Source of the DNA: Clostridia bacterium
GTDB taxonomy: Bacteria > Bacillota > Clostridia > UMGS1883
Direction: 5' to 3'
Length of the DNA stretch: 64,000 nucleotides
Assembly: GCA_051866635.1 (NCBI GenBank)
Contig: JBJDXJ010000063.1
Location: 16,820 to 80,819 of the forward strand
Shown here: piece by piece, positions 8,852 through 43,854 of the stretch
Numbering within the stretch: position 1 is the first letter of the stretch
Layout: each line of letters opens with the position of its first letter
Notes under the pieces: model-generated
Told to the model about the DNA's origin: nothing
The model's database searches: none
What the model saw: only the letters and a program-made list of their open reading frames with translations
Position numbers and translations under genes: made by a program

Positions 8852-9652
8852 TTATTCAGCATCCAAATGGCTTCTTTTTACAATATCTTTTATATTGCTC
8901 ATATCCATTTTGCCGCCGTGTACCTTTTTTAAATACATAAGATATTCAATATTCCCTTCAGGTCCCCTGACAGGGGAAAAATCAACCCCGACCACAGAAA
9001 ATCCCATTTCCTCTGCAAAAAGAATAACATTCTTTATAACAGACTCATGAATATTTTTATCCTTTACAACACCCTTTTTACCAACGTTGCCCCGTCCTGC
9101 TTCAAACTGGGGCTTAATAAGTGCCATAAGCTCCCCGCCATCATTCAAAAGATTATATGCAACAGGTAAAACAAGCTTCAGCGAAATAAACGCCACATCT
9201 ATAGATATAAAGTCAATATCTTCACCAATGTCTTTCTTGGTTACACTCCGTATGTTTGTTTTTTCCATATTGACAACACGTTCATCTTCCCTGAGCTTTT
9301 CCGCCAACTGACCGCTTCCCACATCCACCGCAAAAACCTTTTTTGCTCCGTTTTGAAGCATGCAATCAGTAAAACCGCCTGTGGATGCACCTATGTCCAT
9401 GCACACCTTATCTTTAAGTAATATGTTAAAAGCCTTTATTGCTTTTTCAATTTTTAAGCCTCCACGGCTTACGTATTTTAACGTATCACCCACAATGCGG
9501 ATTTCATCGCCTTCGCTTAAGGTATAGCTTGCCTTGTCCCTTGGCTCATTATTTACAAAAACCTTGCCTTCTTTTATAAGGTTTTTTGCCGCCTCACGGC
9601 TTTGACAAAGCCCCAGTTCCACAAGGTGCACATCAAGTCTCTTCTTTGTCAT
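8852..9652 (-). CDS. tlyA: TlyA family rRNA 2'-O-methyltransferase
   Basis: S4 domain, 'YVSRGGLK', 'DIGASTGGFTD', 'KPQFE', 'GNIEY'; adjacent to dxs. Confidence 0.95.
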   Translation of the reverse strand: MTKKRLDVHLVELGLCQSREAAKNLIKEGKVFVNNEPRDKASYTLSEGDEIRIVGDTLKYVSRGGLKIEKAIKAFNILLKDKVCMDIGASTGGFTDCMLQNGAKKVFAVDVGSGQLAEKLREDERVVNMEKTNIRSVTKKDIGEDIDFISIDVAFISLKLVLPVAYNLLNDGGELMALIKPQFEAGRGNVGKKGVVKDKNIHESVIKNVILFAEEMGFSVVGVDFSPVRGPEGNIEYLMYLKKVHGGKMDMSNIKDIVKRSHLDAE

Positions 9653-28778: not shown

Positions 28779-30287
28779 TTAATATGTAAGTTTGACTATT
28801 TCTGTTTTGTCATCTGCGAAGAAATTCAAATAATGACCTCGCATCCTCTCAGGTGCTTCAATTTTAAGTTCAACGGTTTTTGTGGAAAAATGACCCACGC
28901 ACACATTCTTAGTTACTGTTGCAACTAAGTTTGACTGATAATCGTAAAGCTCCATAGTAACATCAACTTCTGTTTCACATTCGCCTGACTGAACTTCAAC
29001 TTTGCCGATTATTTCATCGCCTTCGTCTATGCCGTCCAAATCGGTATGGCTGACAATTTTTGCAAGGTAATTAAACTCCTCACCTTCTGTAACACCTTCC
29101 AGTGTGGGCTTGGTTTTAATAATTCTTCCGTTGTTGTCAAACTTGAATTCATCTATGCAAAGCTCACGGTGAACACCGTAATAATCGCTTTCATCCCCTT
29201 CAAAGTGTGCCGGGAAATTAAATCTGTGATACATAACATACCACTTATCAGTATTTGGAACATTTATAATTGTATGGTGACCTGTCCCGTAAATGCCCTT
29301 TGCCTCATCTTTTTCAATAAGGATTTCGTTACCGATAATAGGTCCTAACGGATTGTCGGAATAACCCCATCTTACATGGTAGTTTTTATTTCTTGTATCA
29401 TCCTCTGCCCATGTAAAATAATATACGCCCTTACGGTAGAAAATGTGGGCACCTTCACGGAAGTTGGGAGGTGTAATACACAAAGGTTCGCCCTTTAAAC
29501 TTATCATATCGCTTCCAAGCTCACAAACCCACATGCTTCCGTTACCCCAATAAAGGTAACTTCTGCCCGTTTCAGGGTCGGTAAACACTGCCGGGTCAAT
29601 AACCTGACCGGGGTAGTGCATTTCCTTTTCCTCTCCGTCCTCCAATGTAATTTTCATTGTATCATATACAATGGGGTGACCCAAGGGGTCAACATATTTT
29701 CCTGTAGGTGTATCACATACACTAACGCCCACAGCCTTTCCCACATTGCGTTCAAACTTGTCTGTATTTGCACTGTAATAGTAATAATATTTTCCGTTTT
29801 TCTTAATAATACAAGGTGCCCATGCGTTGCCATCAGACCATGAAACGTCCTTTTTAAGGTCTAAAATAACACCTTCGTCTGTCCAATTGACCAAATCGGG
29901 GGAAGAAAATGCCTTGAAATAGTATCCGCCCCAGCCGTCAAAGCCGTCACTTGTGGGGTACACATAATATTTTCCGTCAAAAACATCAGCCTCGGCATCG
30001 GCAAAATAGCCGTACTCACCTACGATGGAATTTCCCCATTCCAACATGGCAACTGTCCATTCTTCGCTTTCACCGTTTTTTGTAAAAAGGTACTTTACAG
30101 TATTATCCTTTTCCACATGGCCTTTCTTTTCCCAGTTCACGCCCTCTTCCGCATCGAAAAAGAGCTCCACATTGTCCAATGCTGTACCTGGCACAACAGG
30201 CACAACAATATAGTTCTGGCTTGAATCTATAATTGCGTTATACTTCTTTACCTTATCGCCGTAAACGGAATTAATTTTTATAGCCAT
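28779..30287 (-). CDS. Glycoside hydrolase family 43
   Basis: 'YVYPTSDG', 'WAPC', 'IDPAVF', 'REGAH', 'GTGHH', 'YHR'. Confidence 0.9.
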   Translation of the reverse strand: MAIKINSVYGDKVKKYNAIIDSSQNYIVVPVVPGTALDNVELFFDAEEGVNWEKKGHVEKDNTVKYLFTKNGESEEWTVAMLEWGNSIVGEYGYFADAEADVFDGKYYVYPTSDGFDGWGGYYFKAFSSPDLVNWTDEGVILDLKKDVSWSDGNAWAPCIIKKNGKYYYYYSANTDKFERNVGKAVGVSVCDTPTGKYVDPLGHPIVYDTMKITLEDGEEKEMHYPGQVIDPAVFTDPETGRSYLYWGNGSMWVCELGSDMISLKGEPLCITPPNFREGAHIFYRKGVYYFTWAEDDTRNKNYHVRWGYSDNPLGPIIGNEILIEKDEAKGIYGTGHHTIINVPNTDKWYVMYHRFNFPAHFEGDESDYYGVHRELCIDEFKFDNNGRIIKTKPTLEGVTEGEEFNYLAKIVSHTDLDGIDEGDEIIGKVEVQSGECETEVDVTMELYDYQSNLVATVTKNVCVGHFSTKTVELKIEAPERMRGHYLNFFADDKTEIVKLTY

Positions 30288-30297
30288 AGCTTACTCC

Positions 30298-30735
30298 TTA
30301 TTTACACAAATCGGCAACCACCTGATTTATAACACTGCCGTCAGCCTTGCCCTTAAGGGTACCCATAACATTTTTCATAATCATACCCTTGTTCTTTGTG
30401 GCAACAACCTCACTAAAATCCTTAAGAAGGATTTCTTTTACCTCCTCTGCACTAAGAAGCTTAGGTGCATACTTGGCTATAACATCATATGTTGCCTGAT
30501 ACTGTTCTTTTAAGTCGCTTCTTGATTCGGGGCATGTGTCAATCTGTTCCTTTATTGTTTTAAGTTCCTTCAAAATAACCTTATCGCAAAGTTCAGGTGT
30601 AATATTGTCCCTTACGCCTTCATCTATCGCAACCTTTTTAATTGCGGCAATAAGGCTTGAAATTGCGTCTTTCGTTGTCTTATCGTGGGCTTTCATTGCC
30701 AAAATCATATCCTGCTGAAGTGCTTTAAATTCCAT
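30298..30735 (-). CDS. GatB/YqeY domain protein
   Basis: 'AMKAHDK', 'YAPKLLSAEEV', 'KGKADG'. Confidence 0.85.
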   Translation of the reverse strand: MEFKALQQDMILAMKAHDKTTKDAISSLIAAIKKVAIDEGVRDNITPELCDKVILKELKTIKEQIDTCPESRSDLKEQYQATYDVIAKYAPKLLSAEEVKEILLKDFSEVVATKNKGMIMKNVMGTLKGKADGSVINQVVADLCK

Positions 30736-30842
30736 TTTTATACTCCCTTTCAAAATATTATTATTGGTATTATATCACTTTCCCATTCTACAGTCAACGA
30801 ATTTTGCATATGTATAAATCGTAAAAAAAATCCCCTAAAGTA

Positions 30843-30871
30843 TTGACATATACATACAGATGGGTTATAAT
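30843..30871 (+). promoter_or_regulatory. SigA promoter of mntP leader
   Basis: TTGACA-17-TATAAT. Confidence 0.85.
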
Positions 30872-30877
30872 TTCCCT

Positions 30878-30965
30878 CTGTGAGGGAGTAGCAAGCGTAC
30901 TTTTACGTAGCAAGTCAACATACTGGGCTGACGCTCTGGCTTGTTTTAAATTGCGAGACTCATGT
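30878..30965 (+). ncRNA. yybP-ykoY Mn2+ riboswitch
   Basis: GAGGGAGTAGC...GTCAACATAC...GCGAGACTC conserved segments upstream of mntP; competing hairpin gactcatg...catggagtc with T-run overlaps the 3' P1 strand. Confidence 0.85.
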
Positions 30966-31009
30966 GTAACTGTGAAGCTATGCATGGAGTCTGTCCTTTT
31001 GTAAGTCAC

Positions 31010-31042
31010 CAAGCATGGTTTTCACCGTGCTTGTTTTTTTTC
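31010..31042 (+). terminator. Leader terminator-like hairpin before mntP
   Basis: caagcatggt / accgtgcttg followed by a T-run. Confidence 0.65.
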
Positions 31043-31066
31043 ATTTAGATACTGGAGGAAATAGAG

Positions 31067-31648
31067 ATGAATTTTGGATTTGCATTAATTATCAACAGCG
31101 TACTTTTAGGCATAGGACTTGCAATGGATGCCTTTTCGGTATCTCTCGCAAACGGACTTAACGAACCTATGATGCGTAAGCGTAAAATGTGTGCCATTGC
31201 GGGCACCTTCGGTTTTTTTCAGGCGTTGATGCCTATGATAGGTTGGTTCTGTATCCATACCATAGTCCAATATTTTCAGACCTTTGAAAAGTTTATTCCA
31301 TGGATTGCACTTATACTTTTAGGTTATATAGGCACAAGTATGCTTTATGAGGGCATAAAGGGCGATGAAGCGTGCGAAAAGCCAAGAGTAGGCATCTTAG
31401 CCCTTCTTGTACAGGGCATCGCAACAAGCATTGACGCTCTTTCCGTAGGCTTTACAATTGCCGATTATGATTTGTTTTCTGCACTTTTTGCATCACTTAT
31501 TATTGCCCTTGTCACCTTCATAATATGTATGGTAGGTCTCTTAATAGGAAGAAAAATGGGTACCTGTCTTGCAAATAAGGCAAGCATTTTAGGCGGTGTA
31601 ATTCTAATCTTTATAGGTATTGAAATATTCATATCGAATATATTCTGA
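31067..31648 (+). CDS. mntP: Manganese efflux pump MntP
   Basis: 'GLAMDAFSVS', 'FQALMP', 'ATSIDALSVG'; riboswitch context. Confidence 0.93.
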   Translation: MNFGFALIINSVLLGIGLAMDAFSVSLANGLNEPMMRKRKMCAIAGTFGFFQALMPMIGWFCIHTIVQYFQTFEKFIPWIALILLGYIGTSMLYEGIKGDEACEKPRVGILALLVQGIATSIDALSVGFTIADYDLFSALFASLIIALVTFIICMVGLLIGRKMGTCLANKASILGGVILIFIGIEIFISNIF

Positions 31649-31659
31649 TAACGAGAAAA

Positions 31660-31828
31660 ATGGGCTGTAAAAAAGTCAACACTGAGATAACAAAAAGACC
31701 ATTTCGGGACTGTCCCAACAAAACCTCGCAAGGTTTCTTTGGCAAATTGTCTCCCAATTTGCCATAAGGGGGACTGTCCCAAATGGTCTTAATTTATTTC
31801 TTTAGAGACTTTTTTTACAGCCTCTTTT
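31660..31828. repeat. Structured MITE/REP-like element, copy 3
   Basis: gggctgtaaaaaagtc ... gactttttttacagcc ends; core 31687-31792. Confidence 0.9.
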
Positions 31829-31867
31829 TGTGTAAAGTATTTACGAGACAGATGATATATTAGAAAT

Positions 31868-31905
31868 TAAAAAGGTTACGGTTTTGATTTTCCGTAACCT
31901 TTTTA
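31868..31905 (-). terminator. Terminator of the zinc-ribbon/TIR cluster
   Basis: aaaaaggttacgg / ccgtaaccttttt. Confidence 0.8.
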
Positions 31906-31907
31906 AA

Positions 31908-32081
31908 TTACTGTGCAGGTTTTACTGCATTTGCTCCACATGAAGGGCAAAGATTATCTGCTCTATACACCTTATCAGGATATTTCTTTGCTCTTAAACA
32001 ATGAATGCACCATGTAGAACCACACTTACTACAGCGGAACATATTTGCTCCCGAAGTTTTACATAAAGGACAATATGCCAT
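31908..32081 (-). CDS. 57-aa protein with four CxxC motifs (two-zinc finger)
   Basis: CPLC, CSKC, CIHC, CPSC; GAGGTGA RBS; followed by a terminator. Confidence 0.75.
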   Translation of the reverse strand: MAYCPLCKTSGANMFRCSKCGSTWCIHCLRAKKYPDKVYRADNLCPSCGANAVKPAQ

Positions 32082-32205
32082 AAAAATCACCTCTTGCATT
32101 TTATTATTATAACGCTGATAACAGTAATTATTTTAACATTGGCATTTTTTCTGCAACAATATCACTAAAATATTTCGCTACAACATCTTTCTGTTATTAT
32201 TTTTA

Positions 32206-33579
32206 TTATCTCGTTTCTACAATTTCTAACGAAAATTCACACAGTGCAGCATTGAGCTGCGTTTCTAATTATTCTGCTTCGGCTTGTGTAAAATCACCAT
32301 TTATCGTGCATGAATCAGTATTTATTTCTTGCGTAATATGCGGAGCAAAAATGACGTTATCATCTATCGTAATCTGAATATAATTATTGGGGATTGATAT
32401 TTGCGAAACTTCGTATGTGGCTTGTTTGAATTTGTCTTGTCCTTGTTTTGTGAAATTCAATTTGATGTAATAACTATCGCTTTCATCTTGTCCTGCACTT
32501 ACCGCACTTATATCATTTCCTGTTAGCAGAATATTATTTTTATAATCCGTAAATTTAAGAGCCTTATCGGAAAAATTCAACATTTCCGCCATCTGTGTAA
32601 TATTGTCCTGCATGGGTAATGTAACTTCAATTTTATCATCACCTTTTATTTCTGTCTTCGCATTGACAAATCCTAAGTTTTTCAGATAATCCATATGTTT
32701 TTCTTTCGCTGTTTGTATATCATTTTGGGGATTGTCGGAATGCAACTTATAAACAATAGTAGTTCATGGTTTAGTTTTCGTATTTTGTAACAATTCCTTT
32801 TTGACATCTTCCAAACTATTATAAGTTCCAACCTCTTTTAAATCACTATCAACGACAGCCCAAACCGTTTTTGATACATAAGGCGGTCCATATATTGCCG
32901 CTATTCTTGATAATGTATTTTGGTCTAAACTTGACCTTACAATATCATAGTGACTCTCTGCCCATAACGAACTCCAATTATAAACCATTTCAGAAGATTG
33001 CGTTGTATAATATATAGGTACTGCATTGTTTTCTTCAAAAAGAACAGTAACATCATTATTGGATTCTATGTTGGGAAAAATTTTCATAGTTGAATTGCTT
33101 ATAATATTTTTGGCTTTTTCAGTTGATATAATTCCGTTTGTTCCTGTTATTTCACGCAAATATTCTTCTGCATATTCTTTGTTTTCAAGGGCATTTACAC
33201 CATATTGTTCTATGTATTTTTTAAATATAGCAATACTTTTAATGTTTGTATCTTTGTCACTATTCCATATTTCCTGCTGGACAACATTAAGGGGTGTATA
33301 TCCAAATATCGGAACGACAAGTTTTTTTGTTTCTGAATTTACAATAACAAAACCATAACAATCATCGATGTTTACTAAAACTAATTTATTGTTATCGCTT
33401 CTATCTAAGCCTTGTGTATCATTTTTCAAATCAAGAATTGTCTCAATTTTACTTGATTCAAACTCATAACCATTCTCGTTGAGTATTTCTCTCAATCTTC
33501 TGTCAGACAGGTTATTTCCGCAAGCAGATAAACAAATAACTGTTAAAATTGCCGTCAGATACATTACAATTTTTTTCAT
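32206..33579 (-). pseudogene. Lipoprotein fused to SecD/SecDF P1-like domain, interrupted by two in-frame stops
   Basis: Lipobox 'LSACG'; ORFs 32764-33579 and 32269-32745 share one frame across TGA 32764; reading continues across TAA 32269 as LETQLNAALCEFSLEIVETR; 'LLTGNDI...LNFTKQGQDKF...ITIDDNVIFAPHI...INGDFTQAEAE' is SecD P1-head-like. Confidence 0.75.
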
Positions 33580-33655
33580 TTCATTTTCCCTCCAATTTTC
33601 ATACTTTGAAAAATATATCTGTGTGTATAACCGATTATTATCTTTATAAATCAAA

Positions 33656-35440
33656 TTACTTCTTAGGCTTATACCTGTTAATTAAATCGGAAATATAACT
33701 TAGTGACTGCATATTCAAGGATAAATCTATAGATTTACAAACTTTTTTTACGTCCAATTCAGTTAATGCCATATTCGTAAGGTTCAATGTTGTATCTTTC
33801 GTAATAGCATTTAGAATTAGTTTGGTATTTTTATCCAATTCTCTATTTCCGCTTTCCTCTTCAGCCAATATCATTTTTGCTTTTTGCTTTGCTATAATTG
33901 TATTATACTCTGAATACAATAATATTACAGGCATAAGAAATTCTGCAACTATGGCAAGAAAAAATAATAACAAAACAAACTGCGGTGTCCCATTACGCCT
34001 ATTTGCTATAATATTCCAAGAAACAAACAAAACGGGAATACATATAGCTTCGGTAATTACAAATTTTTTTAGCATAGCTTTTTTTGCCATATCTTTCAAG
34101 GCAAAATAATCGTTTTCAAGTTTTGTAAATTTTTGATGTAATGCTAATTCGGACTGTTCTTTTTTAGCCTTTTCCTCTTGCTCTTTTGCCAATTTTTCTT
34201 CGGCAATTTTTTTATATTTAGCCTGTGCCGTTTCGCAATAGTTAATCAAAACCGGCTTAAAATTATCATCAGCAAATCGTAACGCATTTTGATAACTCAT
34301 TGATTTACTATAATCAACTGCTCTGTTTGCAAGGTTTTCCTCTTTGTTAACTTTAATTTCAATCATTAGTTTTCCAAGATATGCACGAGCATTTTCCGGC
34401 TCGTGGTTTAACACTTGCTCTAAAAGCTCATCGGCTTTTTGCCATTCCGCAGCTTCAATAAGTATAAATGCTCTTTTCAATAGAGGCTCGGATTGAAAAA
34501 CTTCCGTTTTATTGACAACATTAACATTTGGTTGTGCCGTTTCCTTTTGCAGTACCTTTTTTATTCCTCTTATCAAATCCTGAACAAATCCGATTTTGCT
34601 CATATCCTGACTTTGAAACATTGAAATCTCGTCCGGTAAATCATATGCGTCCATATCACGATAGCAAGGAATAATCATTTTTGACTTGTCACGTTTTGCC
34701 AAATCCAAAAATCTTGCCCATTCATTTTTAACCCAAATTGCATTAAAATATTCTTTGCTTGTACCGACAACGAGCATTACCTTTGCGGAATTTAGGGCAG
34801 AAAATATGTACGGCTCATATTCCGTTCCGAGTTTGTCCTCCAAGGTTATTCTGCTGAAAAATACCTTGTAACCCTCGTTAGTAAGCTGATAGTAAATATC
34901 TTGTGCAAGAGTTGAGTCGATTGTTCGTTTACCGCTGTTATCCGTTTCTTTATAGCATATGAAAATGTCATAGGGAGCTTCTTTAGAGGCTATCGACAAT
35001 ATATTTTTTTGTATTGCGGAAATTGCTTCGGCTTCCTGCTTATATAAGCTTTGAGCCTGATAATCGTCCGAATATTCAACAGCGGCTTTATAGTCCAGAT
35101 CAGACAATATAGATTCATTCTGCACTCTGTGGCAGGTAGGCACTCGTTTATGCGTTTTCGGGTCCTCAACATATTCGATACCATACCTTGAAAGAACACA
35201 TCCCCAGTATGCTTCTGCATTCCTATTATCCTCTGTTAAAATGCTTTCATAAGCCGAAAGAGCCTTATCAAACTCGTTTTGCAGTCTGAAATGGTTTGCT
35301 CTGTCAAACAAATTCAGTATTCGTTCATCATTAACATTCGGCAGCGTCATTGTACTTCCGCAACTGTCGCATACACCGACTTTCTGATTTTCGGTAATCT
35401 CAATATTACCTCCGCACATTTTACATTTTAATATTGCCAT
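33656..35440 (-). CDS. Zinc ribbon-TPR-TIR-TPR protein with two C-terminal TM helices
   Basis: CKMC/CDSC; TPR-like 'ANHFRLQNEFDKALSAYESIL...AEAYWG'; TIR 'YDIFICYKE...VFFS...WVKNEW...IIPCY'; two hydrophobic segments near the C-terminus. Confidence 0.85.
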   Translation of the reverse strand: MAILKCKMCGGNIEITENQKVGVCDSCGSTMTLPNVNDERILNLFDRANHFRLQNEFDKALSAYESILTEDNRNAEAYWGCVLSRYGIEYVEDPKTHKRVPTCHRVQNESILSDLDYKAAVEYSDDYQAQSLYKQEAEAISAIQKNILSIASKEAPYDIFICYKETDNSGKRTIDSTLAQDIYYQLTNEGYKVFFSRITLEDKLGTEYEPYIFSALNSAKVMLVVGTSKEYFNAIWVKNEWARFLDLAKRDKSKMIIPCYRDMDAYDLPDEISMFQSQDMSKIGFVQDLIRGIKKVLQKETAQPNVNVVNKTEVFQSEPLLKRAFILIEAAEWQKADELLEQVLNHEPENARAYLGKLMIEIKVNKEENLANRAVDYSKSMSYQNALRFADDNFKPVLINYCETAQAKYKKIAEEKLAKEQEEKAKKEQSELALHQKFTKLENDYFALKDMAKKAMLKKFVITEAICIPVLFVSWNIIANRRNGTPQFVLLLFFLAIVAEFLMPVILLYSEYNTIIAKQKAKMILAEEESGNRELDKNTKLILNAITKDTTLNLTNMALTELDVKKVCKSIDLSLNMQSLSYISDLINRYKPKK

Positions 35441-35442
35441 CT

Positions 35443-36486
35443 TTACCACATCCGGTCCTCATACGATGTATTTTCAATTCCTTGTTCTCTTAATTTTTTC
35501 ACCATTTTATCAAGTTTTCCACGCCAGAATTTTTTAAACCAAATGGTATTACCAAACCATTTTACAATTGTTGGGCTTATTGCATAATATGTTCTGATAA
35601 ACGCTCTGCCATACCAAGTTTCAGCTAATATATAGTCACGATAACGGCGAAGCGTCCAAACCTCAGGACAGTCATAAGAGCCATATACACAGGTAGCAAC
35701 ATAACAGCCACCGCTACTGAACGTCAATCCTTGATATGACGGGTTGTATTTCTTTATTTTGTCCACATATGAAAGAATTTCCTTCTTTGATTCTTCACTG
35801 GTAAATTTGTAATTAATGCGTATATCAATTCCTTTTTCCCACGCTTTTGCACACATTGTACCGACTTCGGGGTGTTCAATATATCGTTTTTCAAGTTGAT
35901 CTCCCAACTCAAATAATAATAAATATAAAGCCTTGCAGTTTTCTACAAAATCAGACTCAACACCACGTGTATCTTTAAATCTTTGGTAGTGATTTTGAGC
36001 ATTGATGTATAATAATTGGGCAAAGTCTTCTGTTTTTGTGTATACCTGCACAAATGCGTTTGATTCCTCTTCGGATGTCGTATAATTGTCTATAAGATCA
36101 AAAACACTATTCAAGCAATTGGATAATTTATATGCCGCAGATGATATTTCTCCTATTTTACATTGAGCAACATGAAAGTAAGTTGTATAATATGCTGCTT
36201 CCCAGCTGTTTGGATCCTCAACCAAAATCATATCATAATATTTTTCAGCTTGTGCATCATCATTGTTATCTTTTGCACGTCTTGCTACAGTGTATAAATT
36301 ATTTAATCTTTCTAATTTATCTGCCGAAAAATTTGTATCAAATTTTTTTGCTTTTGATTTAACACTAACATTTCCGTGTGATACGGCATGCTCGTCTTTA
36401 AAAACCTCGCCACATTGCCGGCATATATATACATTGCCGTCTTTATCCAACTCGCCACCACAGGATTTGCATTCTAAATATGACAT
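35443..36486 (-). CDS. Zinc ribbon + TPR-like + CFI-box-CTERM protein
   Basis: CKSC/CRQC; 'GGCYVATCVYGSYDCPEVWTLRRYRD...YYAISP'. Confidence 0.85.
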   Translation of the reverse strand: MSYLECKSCGGELDKDGNVYICRQCGEVFKDEHAVSHGNVSVKSKAKKFDTNFSADKLERLNNLYTVARRAKDNNDDAQAEKYYDMILVEDPNSWEAAYYTTYFHVAQCKIGEISSAAYKLSNCLNSVFDLIDNYTTSEEESNAFVQVYTKTEDFAQLLYINAQNHYQRFKDTRGVESDFVENCKALYLLLFELGDQLEKRYIEHPEVGTMCAKAWEKGIDIRINYKFTSEESKKEILSYVDKIKKYNPSYQGLTFSSGGCYVATCVYGSYDCPEVWTLRRYRDYILAETWYGRAFIRTYYAISPTIVKWFGNTIWFKKFWRGKLDKMVKKLREQGIENTSYEDRMW

Positions 36487-36550
36487 TTCAAAAATACTCT
36501 CCTTCTATGTATGATTTTTACTTAGTTTACTATTCCATAGATTTCCTAAC

Positions 36551-36991
36551 TTAATTTGAATATGTTGTCTTTAATTCAACCTTTTTGGTTTCTTCACAAT
36601 TTGGGCAGTAAAAACCACCAGTAAAGCTACCGGGGGTGGTTACAGTAGTACTTGGTTCTGTATATCCGCAACTATCACATTTCTTTTTATAAACTACTTT
36701 GTTTTCATGATTATCTTCAATAATTATTGCATTAGAAATTGCAACTGTAGTACTGGATTGTTTATTTTCTTGTACTTGATTGTAATTTCCGTAATAATTA
36801 TTTGTAGATGTTGAATTTGTACTTTTTTTATCAGTAGACTCATTCGGTGTTTCTACATAATTATCAACTGATTCGCTATATTGCTGATTTGAATCATCTG
36901 TGTTTTGATATGTTGAATCGCCTTGTGGTGTGCAAGCTGTTACACAAATCATCGTAAAAATCACTAAAATGTAAGATATATGTTTTTGCAT
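36551..36991 (-). CDS. Lipoprotein with S/T/N-rich linker and C-terminal CxxC pair
   Basis: Lipobox 'VTAC'; CDSC...CPNC. Confidence 0.7.
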   Translation of the reverse strand: MQKHISYILVIFTMICVTACTPQGDSTYQNTDDSNQQYSESVDNYVETPNESTDKKSTNSTSTNNYYGNYNQVQENKQSSTTVAISNAIIIEDNHENKVVYKKKCDSCGYTEPSTTVTTPGSFTGGFYCPNCEETKKVELKTTYSN

Positions 36992-36995
36992 TTAA

Positions 36996-37424
36996 TTACC
37001 TCCAATAATTTTCCTTTTCTTTTATAAATTCTTTATGTTTTTGTTCCGCCTTGCTGTCAACTTCATTGATATATTCACTGCCTGCCGTTATAGCGATTAT
37101 TCTTATTATAAATACCGCTAAAACTGCAATATGTATTACAAGCGTCCATAATACATACAAAGAAATCAAGCAAGCAATTACCGAAAAAAACACACTGATT
37201 ATTGAATATATTACAGCTGTATAAACAAACGCATGACCTTGGGGGGTTTTTGTAGTTTCTCTCTTACCGAACACACAGAGGCTCAATGCTATACCTATTA
37301 TTGCAATCAAGGTAAATATATACGAAACAATAAATGTGTCCGTAATTGGAACAACTATAAACAATAGAGATACAACTACCGCCATAATAATGGCTGATAT
37401 AATAATTTTTGTGTTATTATTCAT
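36996..37424 (-). CDS. Four-TM membrane protein
   Basis: Four hydrophobic segments; translationally coupled to the SPFH gene. Confidence 0.75.
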   Translation of the reverse strand: MNNNTKIIISAIIMAVVVSLLFIVVPITDTFIVSYIFTLIAIIGIALSLCVFGKRETTKTPQGHAFVYTAVIYSIISVFFSVIACLISLYVLWTLVIHIAVLAVFIIRIIAITAGSEYINEVDSKAEQKHKEFIKEKENYWR

Positions 37425-38670
37425 TTGTACCACCTTCTATTCTATACCCACATTCTAAGCAGAATTTAGCACCATTAGGTACTTCCTTTCCGCAGTTGGA
37501 ACAAATAAGTTGTAATTTACCGCCACACTCCATACAGAATTTACCTTTTGGTGTTTTGCTTCCGCATTGAGGACATATCATTTCATTGTCTGAAAGCTGT
37601 TCAATCTTCGTTCCGCACTCGAGACAGAATTTTGCATTTTCGGGTAAGGTATTACCGCACTTCGGACATATTGAAGTTGATTTTGATGTATTCATATTTA
37701 CTGCATTTCCTATGCTGTCATTTACAACTCCGCCGACAGCACTGCCAACGCTTGTCATGACTCCAAGCCCTATACCCAAGCCAGCCATATTTCCTCCGCC
37801 TTCATTTTTAGCAAAGCCTTCGGCAACATCAAAACCTCGTTCCTGTTGATATGTATAGCCTTCAATCTGACGTTTTGCAGCCATGCCTTCCGCTTCTAAA
37901 ATCATTTTCTGCTTTTCGGTTTCTTGCTTAATAATATCAACATTTTGTTGCAATTTTGCTTCTGCAATATCTGCGTACTGTCTGAAATGCAAACTCTTAA
38001 ATCGCTTATATGTACTGTCATCTTCGGGTTTTACAATGGTCGTTACAAAGAAATGCACCAACGAAACACCGTATTCCTCAAAATCAGGAATAAGTAATTT
38101 ATGTAAGCTTTCCGAAATTTCATTAAGTTTTTCATCAATTTGAAAAATGTTTATTCCGTTATTCCGGATATATGTTGACAAATACGTTTTGAACCTTATC
38201 ATAAGAAAAGCTCTAAACTTTTGTGTCAAGCCTGCTTGTGTAAGTACATTTTCCGTGCCGACTATTTTTACCAAGAGTTTTTTTGCATCGGAAACTCTCA
38301 AACTCATTTCGCCGCTTGCACCTATTTGAAGCGGAAAATTGTATGTGGGTTCCATATATTCAATTTTACTGTCCGTCCCCCACCGAATGTTCATTTGCTC
38401 GGTTTTATTTATAAAGTATACCTCGCAATGAAATGGTGTTTTATCATTAAAAGGCTTATTAAAAAACTTTCTGATAAGCGGAATATTTTGAGTTTCTAAT
38501 GTATGTCTGCCTGCTTCAAAACTATCAAGAAGTTGTCCGTTCATGTAGAAAACCGCTTCTTGCGATTCGTGAACGATAAGTTGTGTTGTTGTATTAAAGT
38601 CTTCACAAGGGTGTTTCCATACAAAGGTTGAGTTATCACCCTCATACTTAATTACATCTGCTATTTGCAC
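37417..38670 (-). CDS. SPFH/band-7-like protein (YdjI/virion-core-like) with triple double-zinc-ribbon tail
   Basis: 'QLIVHESQEAVF...G..L.TQNIP...TPFHCEVYFIN...RWGT'; coiled coil; Gly-rich 'GLGIGLG'; three C..C...KFC.ECG units. Confidence 0.88.
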   Translation of the reverse strand: MQIADVIKYEGDNSTFVWKHPCEDFNTTTQLIVHESQEAVFYMNGQLLDSFEAGRHTLETQNIPLIRKFFNKPFNDKTPFHCEVYFINKTEQMNIRWGTDSKIEYMEPTYNFPLQIGASGEMSLRVSDAKKLLVKIVGTENVLTQAGLTQKFRAFLMIRFKTYLSTYIRNNGINIFQIDEKLNEISESLHKLLIPDFEEYGVSLVHFFVTTIVKPEDDSTYKRFKSLHFRQYADIAEAKLQQNVDIIKQETEKQKMILEAEGMAAKRQIEGYTYQQERGFDVAEGFAKNEGGGNMAGLGIGLGVMTSVGSAVGGVVNDSIGNAVNMNTSKSTSICPKCGNTLPENAKFCLECGTKIEQLSDNEMICPQCGSKTPKGKFCMECGGKLQLICSNCGKEVPNGAKFCLECGYRIEGGTNE

Positions 38671-38807
38671 GCTATACTCATATCCTTTCCAGATCGTTTA
38701 CTAAAAGTGTACTGTAAGAGAGCTCTTTATATTTGCAGTCTTGATATATTTTGCAATTGCTTTTGCTATTTTATTGAGTTAACATTTGGCTCATACGCAT
38801 CTTCTTT

Positions 38808-38851
38808 AAATAGCTCATTTCACCTAAACAAATAGCTCATTTCACCTAAAC
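38808..38851. repeat. Perfect 22-bp tandem duplication
   Basis: aaatagctcatttcacctaaac x2, spanning the stop codon at 38820. Confidence 0.95.
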
Positions 38852-39866
38852 CGCTTTGCAATTTTATTCCCAATATACCTTCATCTTCATACATGTAAAA
38901 ATAACTACCATTGTAGTAGAGTGAATAAGCATAAATACCATCTATTTCATCTATGTACTCCCATGTTCCGCCCCGAACAATTCTACCAAAATCATCAATC
39001 TCATCTAATAAATCTTTAACTTCCAAACTGTCCCGAAATGTACCATTATAAGCATTATAAGACGGCATGCTGACAGACATATGTCCATCACCTTCAAATG
39101 TGTATTGAACACCGGTAGCTTTTTTCCATGTGCCGATAATTGCCACTTTGCTTTCAATACTTTTTGCGAGTTTTTTCGCTTCACTTTTTGTTTTTTCATC
39201 AGCATTAACATTCTTCTCTATGTCTTTAAGACATTCGTCCGCAAAAATATATCCACCATCTTCTATAAATTTTTTTGCCGAATTAAGATTTTTTATTGCC
39301 ATCTCTCGTTGAGCTTCTACAAAATCATCAACGTACTTACCATTCGGGTAGTAGTCCATGTACACATCATAAAATCTATTAATTTCATATTCATCATCAT
39401 TACAATTCAACAATTCCGTATAGAGGTCTTCTTCTACATCTTCTTTTAATGCATTAATCTTTTTTATATATCGTTTTTTATTGGAATAGGTTTCACTAAA
39501 TTCTTCAATATCTTCCAATGTATTACGGTAATCGTCATGTTCTTTTTTTACCGGATATTGATATTCATTGACAATTTCCTTATACAATTTAGCTTCAGGA
39601 TTAGGAATTAAAATCATGAGAATTACAAAGGCTACCGAAATAACAGCTATAATAGGCAGGATTTTTTTCTTAAGCGGTTTGACATTTCTGGAATAATCTA
39701 ATTCATAGGAACTTTCCTCTTGTTCTGTTACTTCTGCATTTACAGTTATGGTTTCTTCCTTTTTTATGTTCTTCTCTTGCATTTTGTCATCCGATTCATC
39801 AGCCTGACATTTTTCACAAAAGCCATTCTCCATAAATTTTCCGCACTTAGGACAAATACTTGACAT
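38820..39866 (-). CDS. Zinc-ribbon single-pass membrane protein with extracellular helical and beta domains
   Basis: CPKC/CEKC, acidic linker, TM, 'YPNGKY', 'IIGTWKK'. Confidence 0.75.
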   Translation of the reverse strand: MSSICPKCGKFMENGFCEKCQADESDDKMQEKNIKKEETITVNAEVTEQEESSYELDYSRNVKPLKKKILPIIAVISVAFVILMILIPNPEAKLYKEIVNEYQYPVKKEHDDYRNTLEDIEEFSETYSNKKRYIKKINALKEDVEEDLYTELLNCNDDEYEINRFYDVYMDYYPNGKYVDDFVEAQREMAIKNLNSAKKFIEDGGYIFADECLKDIEKNVNADEKTKSEAKKLAKSIESKVAIIGTWKKATGVQYTFEGDGHMSVSMPSYNAYNGTFRDSLEVKDLLDEIDDFGRIVRGGTWEYIDEIDGIYAYSLYYNGSYFYMYEDEGILGIKLQSGLGEMSYLFR

Positions 39867-40150
39867 ATTAACATCTCCCTCTGATTATTTATTCTTTATT
39901 TATTTTTGCATCCGTCCGTTTTCATAAGAATTGTGCTTACAAGGACACATGCGAAGCACCAAAGAAATACCGGCACATATCACCAAAACAGCAGTAATAC
40001 TATCACACAAATTTGTCTTGGCAGTTTATTACATATTATCACACAACCTAACAAATTGCAACTATTTTTTGATATAATTTTTAACTATATTTTTGAATGT
40101 TTATTTAATTGGCAAAATGGGATAGAATTATAGCAATAGGGGGTTATGCT

Positions 40151-40324
40151 ATGGATTTTATTATAAAAAAGACTACAAGTTCCAACCGCACGGTCAGAAT
40201 GCCTGACGAATTAATCGAAACTATCAGCACCATTGCCAACGAAAAGGGCATTTCCTTCAATCAGCTTGTTATTCAGTGCTGTGAATATGCGTTGGACCAC
40301 CTTAAGGACGAGAAAACAGAATAA
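40151..40324 (+). CDS. Ribbon-helix-helix DNA-binding protein (Arc/HicB-C-like)
   Basis: 'RTVRMPDELIE...EKGISFNQLVIQCCEYAL'. Confidence 0.75.
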   Translation: MDFIIKKTTSSNRTVRMPDELIETISTIANEKGISFNQLVIQCCEYALDHLKDEKTE

Positions 40325-40350
40325 AACGTCTTTTTTGTTTTATTATAGTC

Positions 40351-40403
40351 AAAAGCACAGAAAAAGTCCCGGACAAATTGTCCAAGACTTTTCTGTGCTT
40401 TTT
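40351..40403. terminator. Bidirectional terminator
   Basis: aaagcacagaaaaagtc / gacttttctgtgcttt between convergent genes. Confidence 0.75.
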
Positions 40404-40406
40404 ATT

Positions 40407-41879
40407 TTAATATACAGGTACTAATCTATTCTCCTCCAATGCATAGCCTGTTATATCGCCCAAATCATACCATTCAACGTTAAACTTTTTTGTATATGCA
40501 GTCATATAGAAGGAATACTCTTTTGAAAACATATCTCCTTCGCAGAGATAAAAGCCTGTTTCCTCATCGTATTTTATACACCATGCAATACAATAATTAA
40601 AATTATTGTAAAACTGATGCTCGATAACCCCGATGCATCCTTCGTTAAGCCCTATCAACAGCTCGGGCACATCGTCATAGTCCATATCACAACAGATTAT
40701 ATCGGCGTTTTTTCTGTCTGGCGGATTAAAAAGGCTGTAATCGTACTGCCCATTGTAGGCAAATTCACCTGTGAAATCGTGTCCGTAGTCATCATTAAGA
40801 TAAACCTTAAGTTTGCCGTCTGAAAGGGTTATGTCGGCATTGACCAAAGTATTGTTTTCTCCCAGCTTTATTTTGCCTTTTTTATTTCCGTCCTCTAAAA
40901 ACAGCAGATGGTCCCAGGGCTTGTACATTGAAAAAATCGCCACATGATTATATGTAGGGTATTTGCTGTACTCCTCCATTTTGCTGTCAGATGCAAATCC
41001 GGTAAAATATGTATCTTCATCTAATGTGATTTCCGCTTCTGTATCTTTTTCATCTATTTCGGCAGTTATGCTATTGGAAGGTTTCTCCATATAGAGGGCA
41101 TTATCCGTTGGGTTTGTGGGCTGTTTTTTGTCAAAGGCGGCGTTACTTTTTCCATTTATCAGACAAATGCAGGCAACAAGTGCCAAAAGGGCAGATGCGG
41201 CACATATTGCAGGAGGTATTATACGGCAAAATATTATTGCACGATGTAAGGCTTTAACGTTTTTATACCGCTGGGACGGGTCAAGCCGCTTGCATTTTTC
41301 CGATATTTTGTGCAAACAACCCTTTATACCTAAGTAATCCAATACAGCCTGTATTGTTGCACCAAAGGCATATATATCTGTTTTAAAATCTGTGGGCATC
41401 ATGCCGTACTGTTCAATAGGGGCATAACCGAAGGTGCCCATTTTTTCGGTATCTTGCCGTATTTCAGACCTGTAAATGCGGGCAATATCGTAATCAATCA
41501 ACCATATGTGATTTGACGCATCAACAAGTATATTGTCGGGCTTAATATCTCTGTGGATAATATTTTGACTGTGTAGGACTGCTAATGCATCTGTCAATTG
41601 TAGCATAATGGAGCGTATTTCTTTTTTTGTGAACTTACGACCTTCCTCCATAAGTGTTGATAAGGACTTGCCTTCAATATATTCCTCAACAACAACTGTT
41701 TTATCGCCAAATTCCACAGAGAAAATCTTTGGTATGTTGGGGCTTGAAATTTTTTGAAGGTTTTTGTAAATTTCACGCTTGTCCCCTTCTATTTCCCTTT
41801 TGAGATATTTTTTGCCGTTATCTGTACAGAGAACAATTTTCTGCCTGTCATTTTGTTTTAAAATCTCACATTCTTTCAA
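40407..41879 (-). CDS. Membrane-anchored Hanks-type Ser/Thr protein kinase
   Basis: 'HRDIKPDN', 'DYDIAR', 'GTFGYAPIEQ', 'DIYAFG'; TM then extracellular domain. Confidence 0.92.
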   Translation of the reverse strand: MKECEILKQNDRQKIVLCTDNGKKYLKREIEGDKREIYKNLQKISSPNIPKIFSVEFGDKTVVVEEYIEGKSLSTLMEEGRKFTKKEIRSIMLQLTDALAVLHSQNIIHRDIKPDNILVDASNHIWLIDYDIARIYRSEIRQDTEKMGTFGYAPIEQYGMMPTDFKTDIYAFGATIQAVLDYLGIKGCLHKISEKCKRLDPSQRYKNVKALHRAIIFCRIIPPAICAASALLALVACICLINGKSNAAFDKKQPTNPTDNALYMEKPSNSITAEIDEKDTEAEITLDEDTYFTGFASDSKMEEYSKYPTYNHVAIFSMYKPWDHLLFLEDGNKKGKIKLGENNTLVNADITLSDGKLKVYLNDDYGHDFTGEFAYNGQYDYSLFNPPDRKNADIICCDMDYDDVPELLIGLNEGCIGVIEHQFYNNFNYCIAWCIKYDEETGFYLCEGDMFSKEYSFYMTAYTKKFNVEWYDLGDITGYALEENRLVPVY

Positions 41880-41950
41880 TCAAATCCCTCCTTGCAAAAT
41901 GTTACAATTTGTATTATCATAATTATATTAAATTTAAGGAGTGTTTGTCA

Positions 41951-42373
41951 ATGGCTTCAATTACGGAAGAACTGTTAACCGAATTAAAAAACGCCTCTGA
42001 TTTACAAAGCTTTTTTAAAAAGCACGAAAATGACTTTATCGAAAAGAGCCTTGATGTTTATTTAAACGAGTTTTTAGCCGCAAAAGGGATAAGCATTTCG
42101 GACATTATAAAATCATCCGGTGCAGGGGAATATGCTTACAAAATATTTAAAGGGGAAAGAAAGCCCTCGAGAGATATTCTCATATCAATAGCATTCGGTA
42201 TGGGGCTTTCTTTGCAGGAAACACAACTTATGCTACGCATTGCAAAATTTGCTGTTTTAGACCCCAGGGATAAACGTGACGGAGTTATAATATATGCATT
42301 AACCCACAATATGACAGTATTTGAGGCTGACGATGTTTTAGACGAAAACAATTTCACCACAATTAACAGTTAA
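41951..42373 (+). CDS. XRE-family HTH protein
   Basis: 'YAYKIFKGERKPSRDILISIAFGMGLSLQETQLML'; divergent from the kinase. Confidence 0.75.
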   Translation: MASITEELLTELKNASDLQSFFKKHENDFIEKSLDVYLNEFLAAKGISISDIIKSSGAGEYAYKIFKGERKPSRDILISIAFGMGLSLQETQLMLRIAKFAVLDPRDKRDGVIIYALTHNMTVFEADDVLDENNFTTINS

Positions 42374-42443
42374 CTTAAGAAGGGGTTGGATTTAATAAAA
42401 CTTTCCTTATCTAAGTGCATTTCTTAATGCTCAACTTTTTTTA

Positions 42444-42482
42444 TAATAATGGGGTCAGGCTTGTCACCTGACCCCATTATTA
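42444..42482. repeat. Perfect 16-bp palindromic hairpin (REP-like or bidirectional terminator)
   Basis: taataatggggtcagg-N7-cctgaccccattatta. Confidence 0.8.
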
Positions 42483-42513
42483 CAGAACGGTTTTTCTTCG
42501 TATAAATACACTT

Positions 42514-43854
42514 TTAATTTTTCAAACTCTGCAAAGGTGCCGGAATTCTGCCGCCACGGGCAATAAATTCACTGCAGGACTTATTGTTAACACTCATAAC
42601 GGGACCTGAACCTAAAAGTCCTCCGAATTCAACCACATCCCCAACCTTCTTACCCTTGGCAGGGATAACTCTTACGGCTGTTGTTTTACTGTTAACCATA
42701 CCGATTGCGGCTTCATCTGCAATAATACCGGAAATTGTTTCTGCCGTTGTGTCCCCCGGCACTGCAATCATATCAAGACCTACAGAACACACACAAGTCA
42801 TTGCTTCAAGTTTTTCAAGAGTTAAGCACCCTGACTTTACAGCGGAAATCATACCTGCATCTTCGCTTACGGGAATAAATGCACCCGACAAACCGCCAAC
42901 GTAACTGGATGCCATAACACCGCCCTTTTTAACGGCATCGTTAAGCAGAGCAAGTGCGGCAGTAGTGCCGTGTGTACCGCACTGTTCCAAGCCCATTTCC
43001 TCAAGAATGTATGCAACAGAGTCACCTACCGCAGGGGTGGGAGCCAATGAAAGGTCCACAATACCGAAGGGGACATTCAATCTCTTTGATGCTTCTACAG
43101 CCACCATCTGACCCATTCTTGTTATTTTGAAGGCCGTTTTTTTCACAGTGTCAGCCACAACGCCGAAGGGCTGACCCTTTACCTTTTCCAAAGCACATTT
43201 TACAACGCCGGGACCTGATACGCCCACATTGATTACACATTCCCCTTCACCTGTGCCGTGGAAAGCACCTGCCATAAAGGGATTATCTTCAACTGCATTT
43301 GCAAACACAACAAGCTTTGCACAAGCCATATCATCCAATTCTGAGGCTTTTTTTATAACCTGACCCATCTGTCTTACAGCATCCATATTGATGCCTGCTT
43401 TTGTGCTTGCCACATTAACAGATGAACACATTTTACTTGTTTCTGCCAAGGCTTCGGGAATAGAGTCCACAAACAAGCGGTCAGAATCAGTATAGCCCTT
43501 TGCCACCAGTGCGGAGTAGCCGCCTATAAAGTTTACGCCTGTAGTTTCTGCCGCACGGTCAAGTGCCTTTGCAAACTCCACATAATGACCACAGCTTGAT
43601 GCCACATGTGATATGGGAGTTACGGAAATACGCTTATTAATAATGGGAATACCGAATTCCTTTTCAATATCCACACCTGTTTTTACAAGATTTTCTGCGT
43701 ATTTTGTTATTTTATCATACACTTTCACCGTTGCTTTTTTGTAGTCCTCACAGGCACAATCCAAAAGTGATATACCCATGGTGATGGTGCGGACATCAAG
43801 ATGCTCGGCATTTATCATGTTCAGTGTTTCATAAATTTCAAGATTATTTATCAT
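42514..43854 (-). CDS. UPF0210/DUF711 (PFL family) protein
   Basis: '[13 protein letters not shown]', 'NKRISVTP', 'VCSVGLDM', 'RIPAP'. Confidence 0.92.

Follow-up and report, generated by a model that had tools for sequence, protein, structure and literature searches.

A conserved gene cassette for an SPFH, a 4-TM and a TIR protein on an accessory island of a Clostridia bacterium: a candidate surface-sensing immune system

TIR enzymes are common to bacterial, plant and animal immunity, and to our knowledge the known bacterial TIR immune enzymes sense infection inside the cell. For the SPFH protein of the present study, the closest described system is PspA-SamGHI (formerly YdjGHI) of Bacillus subtilis, in which, according to the accessible parts of PMC13713150 and PMC8581546, SamI is recruited to the membrane by SamG and SamH. 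Putative antigen sensors of multicellular bacteria that are diversified by diversity-generating retroelements (DGRs) and linked to effectors of the TIR or peptidase type have also been reported (Doré et al. 2024, PMC10907252; Kaur et al. 2020, PMC7159879). As far as the accessible parts of these two papers go, such sensors belong to STAND NTPases or MoxR-vWA ternary modules of cyanobacteria and proteobacteria. Here, a cluster of eight genes at positions 31908-39866 of a 64,000-nt stretch from a Clostridia bacterium (contig JBJDXJ010000063.1; the whole stretch is called the window) was analyzed. Three of the genes, encoding an SPFH protein (g2), a protein with four transmembrane (TM) helices (4-TM protein, g3) and a TIR protein (g6), were found to form a conserved cassette that may well represent a new immune system sensing at the cell surface.

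The region 31908-39866 is covered by nine open reading frames (ORFs) on the minus strand, all in the same orientation (ORF calling with table 11). ORF calling and TM counts were performed with simple scripts, the latter as a crude hydropathy scan. The genes and the hairpin that follows them are:

38820-39866, minus strand: g1, 348 aa, N-terminal zinc ribbon, one TM helix and an outer domain of ~260 aa; lineage-specific.
37417-38670, minus strand: g2, 417 aa, cytosolic SPFH domain, Gly-rich low-complexity stretch and three C-terminal zinc ribbons; core gene 1.
36996-37433, minus strand: g3, 145 aa, 4-TM partner protein in its short form; core gene 2.
36551-36991, minus strand: g4, 146 aa, small predicted lipoprotein with a C-terminal CxxC...CxxC; lineage-specific slot occupant.
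35443-36486, minus strand: g5, 347 aa, Zn-ribbon/TPR head, helical body and CFI-box-CTERM; accessory gene in the variable slot.
33656-35449, minus strand: g6, 597 aa, Zn-ribbon, TPR, TIR, TPR, coiled coil, two TM segments and an 83-aa tail; core gene 3.
32206-33654, minus strand: g7, lipoprotein with an N-domain without assigned family and a SecDF P1-head, present as two ORFs (32764-33654 and 32269-32745).
31908-32099, minus strand: g8, 63 aa, eight Cys in four CxxC pairs; lineage-specific.
31864-31909, minus strand: terminator-like hairpin, inverted repeat I5 with 18-nt arms (94% complementary) and a 10-nt loop, followed by a T-run.

The conservation of the cluster was analyzed in related loci. 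A TIR-family scan with one genome per species confirmed at least 619 stretches that encode a relative, and the 76 related loci used here come from the best 80 of these at least 619 stretches, a sample that is skewed towards close relatives. They are mostly contigs of metagenome-assembled genomes (MAGs), many of them truncated, and some taxon labels (Holophagales, Planctomycetes) may be binning errors. In tblastn searches with the window proteins, 52 of the 76 loci had an SPFH gene on the same strand as the TIR gene and at most 10 kb away from it. When the 1117 ORFs called from the related loci were clustered into families, an SPFH gene was present in 50 loci, a 4-TM gene in 49 and both in 45, and the 4-TM gene directly followed the SPFH gene in 44 of these 45. 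Among loci with a flank of at least 3 kb on each side, 25 of 32 contained the SPFH gene, and with at least 5 kb the count was 19 of 23. The recurrent ORF families were TIR, SPFH and 4-TM (which includes g3), and every other family occurred in 8 loci or fewer. The usual order of the cassette is SPFH, 4-TM, zero or one variable gene and one to five TIR genes, with 2-5 tandem TIR paralogues in 21 of the 76 loci. The window matches this definition: a PF13421 gene, a 4-TM gene of the g3 family and a ZnR-TPR-TIR-TPR gene follow each other in this sequence on one strand within a few kb, together with two slot genes. The closest relative among the 76 loci (L017; SPFH 79% and TIR 75% identical) contains just the three core genes. 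The association of g2, g3 and g6 exceeds chance, and the trio recurs in dozens of genomes.

The distribution was also determined in whole genomes. The TIR protein was present in 6 of 41 related genomes, and PF13421 of the strong class (E<=1e-36) in 8, including all six TIR-positive ones, while TIR was found in none of the other 33; the 41 genomes are kin, and the co-occurrence is thus a pattern and not a test. Among other genomes sampled across the phylum, 0 of 400 were positive at E<=1e-20. The functional link between SPFH and TIR that had been proposed in an initial annotation of this DNA is supported by the conserved neighbourhood in 50-52 of the 76 loci and by the co-occurrence across the 41 relatives. 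That annotation had also treated all eight genes as one system, but they do not constitute a co-conserved set. In the gene-neighbourhood comparison g2, g3 and g6 recurred together, but tblastn gave no match for g1, g4, g7 and g8 in the 76 related loci.

The first core protein, g2, matched Band_7_1 (PF13421) with an E-value of 2.8e-38, and its three zinc ribbons (six CxxC pairs) matched Zn_Ribbon_1 and DZR. A strong TM helix was not detected by hydropathy, just the Gly-rich stretch at residues 298-316. It is the sole PF13421 gene of the window genome. PF13421 was found in all 52 of the 52 aligned SPFH partners, with DZR-type tails in 29 and SHOCT tails in 19 of them. The second core protein, g3, has four TM helices, as read by eye and from the family model. 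The 4-TM family gave no Pfam match. Its model is all-helical (predicted local distance difference test, pLDDT, 93.1), and a fold search with it returned no PDB neighbour at E<=0.001 and, in the Atlas, unnamed "hypothetical protein" clusters only. The usual form of 233 aa contains an extra cytosolic helical domain with a conserved 'RYSDP' motif. The short form of 141-145 aa, which is present in the window (g3) and in two related loci (L017 and L022), is devoid of this domain. A complex prediction of g2 with residues 1-420 of g6 had a score of 0.00 and gave no answer either way.

The comparison with YdjGHI in the initial annotation is apt for g2, considering the build of SamI given in the accessible part of PMC13713150. 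Both g2 and SamI/YdjI are PF13421 proteins of the same build, and g2 is also encoded beside small membrane proteins. The resemblance of g1 to SamG is one of outline only, a cytosolic zinc finger plus a TM helix. A pspA gene (PF04012) was found neither beside the cluster nor in the window genome, which is 96.6% complete (the control search was positive in 9 of 14 genomes). The lack of a PspA match in the genome separates the cassette from the PspA-SamGHI module. A TPM-domain protein, the equivalent of SamH, was not among the Pfam matches of the cluster ORFs, even at E<=1. In contrast to SamGHI, the conserved partners are an uncharacterised 4-TM family and a TIR protein, and neither of them was found mentioned in the accessible text of PMC13713150 or of the phage shock protein (PSP) survey PMC11237479, supplementary tables excluded.

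The third core protein, g6, matched TIR_2 (E 8.5e-12) with TPR matches on both sides, and two TM segments were found by the hydropathy scan. The AlphaFold model of residues 1-420 had a pLDDT of 91.6. Foldseek neighbours of this model were the TIR domains of SARM1, AbTir, plant L7, TIR-STING and SPARTA, with TM-scores to the target of 0.68-0.71 for SARM1 and AbTir. The nearest TIR folds of the modeled protein are thus those of the NAD+-processing class. In 88 of 88 sequences, the zinc-ribbon cysteines C9, C12, C27 and C30 as well as D161, F163, W239, E243, W244 and R246 were invariant. Residue E243 aligns with the Glu of flax L6 'CLMELAE', which we take to be the catalytic residue; the alignment is weak (E 0.086). 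E243 is therefore a candidate catalytic Glu, and g6 would be expected to cleave NAD+.

A search with residues 1-420 retrieved at least 8000 protein clusters. The best 120 of these at least 8000 were 63-83% identical over residues 1-420, had lengths of 407-910 aa and differed in their other Pfam domains; even where the identity over residues 1-420 reaches about 80%, lengths and tail domains are not the same. The protein g6 itself ends with a TM hairpin and an 83-aa tail and belongs to a short subtype without ectodomain. It aligns with a relative of 758 aa (P0052) that extends into a third TM helix and a PASTA domain. For a census, the 102 tails that follow the cytosolic module in the 76 loci were assigned with Pfam:

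DUF6273 tails: 55 of 102 (one also with RCC1).
RCC1 repeats only: 21 of 102.
BspA-type leucine-rich repeats (LRR_5): 4 of 102.
FGE-sulfatase: 2 of 102.
RHS: 1 of 102.
FtsK-gamma (FtsK_gamma): 1 of 102.
Ribosomal_L12: 1 of 102, probably spurious.
Without domain: 17 of 102.

Of the 90 long tails, 67 have exactly one TM helix according to the hydropathy scan, 20 have no TM helix and 3 have two. Most members should therefore be type-II membrane proteins with the variable domain outside of the cell. The initial annotation had assumed external sensors as separate proteins; the tail census revealed instead that in the relatives the sensor is fused to the TIR protein itself.

Such relatives combine an outward leucine-rich-repeat (LRR) or other binding domain with a cytosolic TIR domain via a single TM helix, which is analogous to animal Toll-like receptors in architecture only. 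In contrast to the Toll-like receptors, the TIR domain is N-terminal and the sensor C-terminal, the TIR domain is of the enzymatic and not of the adaptor-scaffold class, homology of the whole proteins is not implied, and the window copy has no sensor. In four loci (L032, L046, L077 and L079), TIR paralogues carry ectodomains of BspA-type LRRs plus Listeria-Bacteroides repeats, a Toll-like-receptor build with reversed polarity.

In 4 of the 76 loci (L030, L039, L041 and L045), the 3' end of the TIR gene was found to be the variable repeat of a DGR. The five pairs of variable and template repeats differ by 17-26 mismatches each, and 81-94% of the mismatches are located at template adenines. The variable repeat lies at the DUF6273 end of the TIR-receptor genes, and the retroelements are complete or partial. 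A full set is encoded downstream in L030 (12424-14477), consisting of a bAvd-like gene, the template repeat and a reverse transcriptase, and a single template repeat fits two TIR paralogues of L041. DUF6273 is, according to the accessible parts of PMC11792537 and bioRxiv 10.1101/2024.10.15.618418, a C-type-lectin-like DGR target domain of the receptor-binding proteins of gut phages. In the window no DGR was found: g6 is devoid of DUF6273, and no long repeat pair is present within 30200-42600.

These loci resemble the DGR antigen sensors linked to TIR or peptidase, as described in the accessible parts of PMC10907252 and PMC7159879, in that a DGR rewrites a C-type-lectin-like domain joined to TIR. 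The cassette differs from them by the absence of an NTPase, a mostly single-pass outward tail, the SPFH partner and hosts that are, judged by their record titles, mostly anaerobic Bacillota, and the window copy has neither a DGR nor a lectin domain. With the TIR NADase effectors (Thoeris ThsB, SARM1, AbTir, plant TIRs, TIR-STING and SPARTA), g6 shares the TIR fold and the invariant Glu, and standalone ThsB-like TIR and SIR2-like genes are encoded inside some related cassettes. Unlike the TIR NADase systems, the cluster has no ThsA, cyclase, Argonaute or NLR module, and g6 differs by its membrane anchor, its flanking TPRs and its zinc-ribbon head and by the link to an SPFH protein. Among the nine ORFs, no match to ThsA or ThsB of PADLOC was obtained, and g6 was not matched by the TIR models of PADLOC. 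Pfam and PADLOC also detected no nucleotide cyclase (CBASS, Pycsar) and no short Argonaute (SPARTA) in the cluster. The membrane-embedded phage sensors Zorya ZorAB and Kiwa are similar in the idea that an attack on the envelope is sensed and passed on to cytosolic effectors, but the proteins are unrelated, a MotAB-like stator is missing here, and there was no PADLOC match. All nine ORFs of the window cluster gave 0 matches to PADLOC models, which agrees with the earlier remark that the gene set matches no named defence system. The SPFH, 4-TM and TIR proteins of two other loci also had no PADLOC match, and the core genes are unnamed in PADLOC 2.0 and NCBIfam. In full-text literature searches, the supplementary tables of PMC11237479 and PMC7159879 excluded, we found no description that ties SPFH/Band-7 to a Toll-type TIR protein, and none of the receptor family. 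We place the cassette among putative TIR-based conflict systems, in which its sensor and its regulator would be arranged in a new way.

Between the 4-TM and TIR genes, 29 genes were found inside the cassettes of 27 loci. Pfam domains at E<=1e-4 were assigned to 13 of the 29: DUF2971 (3), HEPN pEK499_p136 (2), standalone TIR_2 (2), DUF4365 (2) and one each of SIR2_2, HNH_2, Avd-like and DUF6273. PADLOC models were matched by 13 of 28 accessory genes (PDC-S31, PDC-S66/ThsB, Aga_REase, PDC-S25, ThsA-STALD, HNH and PDC-S14). Judged by these family matches, the slot often holds putative effectors of defence type (SIR2, TIR, HEPN, restriction endonuclease (REase), HNH and DUF2971).

In the window, the slot is occupied by g4 and g5. 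The g5 protein matched CFI_box_CTERM (NF041770) with 71.2 bits, the cut-off being 40, and an E-value of 4.6e-20. Over the first ~110 residues, g5 shares homology with the TIR-family head (hhalign probability 96.1%, E 3.5e-9, 85 columns). The presence of a common head on different bodies suggests that it might be a docking module. Genes of the g5 architecture (ZnR plus CFI-box) are also present in two related cassettes (L022 and L044), but g5 is rare elsewhere, with 3 positive genomes among 87 of the order. The g4 translation has a signal- or lipobox-like N-terminus and two Cys pairs, and a significant family match was not obtained. If g4 is a lipoprotein, its CxxC pairs would be extracellular.

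The genomic context of the cluster was compared with that of congeners. In one of them (G004), homology to the window covers 30843-31644 and resumes at 42514 after just 54 nt. Because of this break with a 54-nt join, the region 31645-42513 represents an insertion. The flanking genes at 30298-30753 and 42514-43854 are 1.0-2.1 kb apart in five congeners versus 11.8 kb here, and the GC content is 0.29-0.38 within the island versus 0.40-0.46 outside. The same congener has an SPFH-TIR cassette of its own at a different site. Flanking direct repeats of at least 16 nt were not found at 31.6 kb and 42.5 kb, and no integrase was found in the window island. The window cassette was thus acquired horizontally as part of an island, which carries five additional genes specific to the lineage. 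The island and the features outside of the cluster are:

31645-42513, no strand: accessory island of ~10.9 kb with the eight genes, a ribbon-helix-helix (RHH) gene, a Ser/Thr kinase gene and an ORF of 154 aa.
40109-40324, plus strand: divergent RHH gene, weak HicB/CopG/Arc matches below the cut-offs; possible regulator.
40407-41879, minus strand: Ser/Thr protein kinase with one TM helix and a C-terminal domain of ~250 aa; own terminator at 40361-40393.

Further signs of mobility were found in related loci. A tyrosine recombinase of 279-285 aa is encoded directly upstream of the SPFH gene in 8 loci (e.g. L030, 6095-6952), and a MobL relaxase and a RelB antitoxin are cassette neighbours in one locus each. 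The idea that the TIR gene is a prophage-borne exclusion gene was dropped, since residues 1-420 had no tblastn match in the phage and plasmid collections and 2.9 million viral contigs yielded just two loci.

A mechanism can be proposed that combines these observations. Following the precedent of SamGHI, recruitment by the 4-TM protein would place the SPFH protein at the inner side of the membrane, where SPFH rings or cages may form. The TIR proteins might dock on this SPFH platform via the highly conserved Zn-ribbon/TPR head and would be held back from self-association until a disturbance of the surface or the membrane lets the TIR domains assemble. In the relatives, the trigger could be a ligand bound by the fused outward LRR, RCC1 or lectin-like domain. 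For the short form in the window, a change of the membrane itself or an accessory protein would be the more likely trigger. The assembled TIR domains, for which the fold and the candidate Glu were found, are expected to cleave NAD+, either for depletion or to generate a signal for a slot-encoded effector.

Accordingly worded, the cassette would be a membrane-sited TIR conflict or immune module, most likely anti-phage, that is regulated by an SPFH/4-TM platform, and we regard this as an evenly balanced proposition. A role in conflict was favored over housekeeping because the TIR domain is of the enzyme class with an invariant Glu, the location is at the membrane, and the outward domains are swappable or hypermutated, and also because of the tandem paralogues, the effector-type slot genes, the patchy distribution and the mobility. 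More specifically, the window could be a reduced member of a large family of single-pass, Toll-like-receptor-like surface immune receptors, in which the outward domain (LRR, RCC1 propeller or a lectin-like domain open to hypermutation by a retroelement) would detect phage particles or different attackers before they enter or as they do so, and an SPFH cage on the 4-TM protein would hold and release the TIR NADase, with swappable effectors (SIR2, HEPN, nuclease, extra TIR) encoded in the fixed slot; this version is put forward tentatively, as a possibility. If it were true, no SPFH-dependent immune system would have preceded it, and neither would any prokaryotic defence whose extracellular sensors are diversified ahead of need. 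In the cassette, a TIR domain of the enzymatic class is coupled with the membrane and an SPFH scaffold, and most relatives add an outward binding domain that is exchangeable or DGR-diversified, which raises the question of whether bacteria sense surface attack via TIR receptors. The TIR protein could also be a specific client of a bacterial member of the SPFH family, whose functions are largely unclear, and DGR hypermutation could thereby serve the cells of gut anaerobes. With at least 8000 protein clusters and at least 619 species-level stretches, the TIR family is abundant.

Several points weigh against an immune role. In 7 of the 32 well-flanked loci with a TIR gene, no SPFH gene is nearby. 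The cytosolic module is unusually conserved for an immune gene, with 50-60% identity to most of the 88 relatives. The three core proteins match no PADLOC model. Outward-facing sensors are unusual for known defence systems and would fit adhesion or environment sensing equally. SamI/YdjI, the sole studied relative of g2, acts in membrane stress and differentiation and not in phage defence, as far as described in the accessible parts of PMC13713150 and PMC8581546. The window copy has no ectodomain, its g3 has no cytosolic domain, and one neighbour is a pseudogene, so that this copy may be reduced or decaying. In addition, the 76 loci stem from the best matches of one scan, with a bias towards close relatives and possible MAG binning errors.

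The main rival explanation is an envelope-stress or membrane-homeostasis module similar to SamGHI/YdjGHI, in which the SPFH and 4-TM proteins monitor the membrane and TIR provides a physiological output by NAD+ turnover or a second messenger. It would be in line with the SamI build of g2 (PF13421, low-complexity stretch, C-terminal zinc fingers, no anchor), with the presence of PF13421 in the B. subtilis control genome, with the high conservation of the cytosolic TIR module and with the PASTA tails of some relatives. Furthermore, the membrane proteins that recruit SamI include, according to the accessible part of PMC13713150, one with a cytosolic zinc finger, a build that is also found in g1. 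However, PspA (PF04012) was not found in a genome that is 96.6% complete, and the cluster has no TPM-domain protein. The patchy distribution (6 of 41 relatives, 0 of 400 other genomes of the phylum at E<=1e-20) and the insertion of the stretch as an island do not fit well either, and hypermutated or swapped tails and defence-type slot genes would be odd for housekeeping. We consider this explanation unlikely, though it has to be taken seriously.

A further alternative is that the proteins are receptors for surface recognition or adhesion, directed at host glycans, neighbours or kin, and that TIR and SPFH signal the contact or punish non-kin, which would make the system inter-bacterial rather than anti-phage. 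The ectodomains, with the lectin-like folds of DUF6273 and FGE-sulfatase, BspA-LRR, RCC1 and Flg_new repeats, are compatible with such a function, DUF6273 is a receptor-binding domain of gut-phage DGR targets (accessible parts of bioRxiv 10.1101/2024.10.15.618418 and PMC11792537), and many related loci are labelled as gut or rumen samples. The slot genes, in contrast, are of intracellular effector types directed at nucleic acids or NAD, and the window copy as well as a large short subfamily have no ectodomain at all; we regard this alternative as quite improbable. The arrangement envisaged in the initial annotation, a single complex of all eight gene products in which g1, g4 and g7 act as separate sensors and cluster TIR through zinc-ribbon/TPR contacts on an SPFH scaffold, is very unlikely as stated. 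Four of its members (g1, g4, g7 and g8) are absent from 76 of 76 loci, including the closest relative L017, the g1 family is very rare, g7 contains two nonsense codons, and gaps of 149 and 169 nt precede g2 and g8. These observations outweigh the co-orientation with one closing terminator, the CxxC pairs in six of the eight genes, the head that g5 shares with the TIR protein and the location of all eight genes on one island. In comparison with these three alternatives, the membrane-sited TIR conflict module regulated by SPFH and 4-TM remained the preferred reading.

The structure of the gene row was in agreement with several statements of the initial annotation. Co-oriented genes closed by one terminator were confirmed by the minus-strand ORFs and the hairpin with T-run at 31864-31909, CxxC pairs were present in the translations of six of the eight genes (g1, g2, g4, g5, g6 and g8), as had been proposed, and the domain calls for g2, g5, g6 and the SecDF-P1 head of g7 were reproduced by matches to family models. 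The tight packing applies to g2/g3/g4 and to g5/g6/g7, but not to the junctions g1/g2, g4/g5 and g7/g8, where the intergenic gaps are 149, 64 and 169 nt, respectively. Within 30000-43000, Rfam gave no match at the gathering score. Promoter-like sites were not enriched in the region (52 versus 48.5 in shuffles), and a promoter is not claimed because such sites are no commoner than in shuffled sequences.

The neighbours of the cluster on the island were inspected as well. The RHH protein of the window is similar to the RHH protein that precedes a related cassette (L044; BLASTP E 8e-8), and RHH genes of this type precede cassettes in 7 related loci. The kinase encoded at 40407-41879 matched the PADLOC models mad6 and PD-T4-6 with its kinase domain only. 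It was rejected as a member of the system, as it has its own terminator and a homologue in just 1 of the 76 loci. Between mntP and the cluster terminator, the left end of the island contains a 19-nt inverted repeat (31656-31674 and 31811-31829, with 136 nt between the arms). In one related locus (L054), a second integrase is encoded after the TIR gene (9262-9981).

The lineage-specific genes showed some peculiarities. For g1, one TM helix was placed at residues 69-87 by the hydropathy scan, Pfam gave no match, and just 25 representative relatives were found at E<=0.001 among 1.84 billion proteins. A perfect tandem duplication of 22 nt (38808-38851) spans the g1 stop codon. With the duplication the protein ends with '...EMSYLFR', about where its relatives end, and without it the frame would run 10 codons further. 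For g8, the Zn_ribbon_3 match was weak and below the cut-off.

The "lipoprotein-SecD-P1 fusion" gene of the initial annotation, g7, turned out not to be intact, as it contains two in-frame stop codons. Both ORFs share one frame, which a TGA interrupts at 32764-32766, and the last 20 codons are lost through a TAA at 32269-32271; SecDF_P1_head was matched in the second ORF (E 4.8e-15). An intact relative (P0121; 459 aa, 91% identical) has Gly and Ser at these two sites. As judged from these alignments, g7 is one ancestral gene that is broken here. Recoding of the TGA was rejected: the other stop codon is a TAA, and the remaining genes can be translated normally with table 11. The gene occurs in 2 of 87 genomes of the order. 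Intact relatives of g7 have 405-469 aa, and in other members of the family SBP_bac_3 or PpiC replaces the P1 head. One locus (L095, G026:C16, 1375-3387) encodes a lipoprotein of 670 aa in which a Ser-rich linker connects a g7-like N-domain to a large C-terminal domain, and this gene adjoins small lipoproteins with motifs like those of the C-terminal module of g1.

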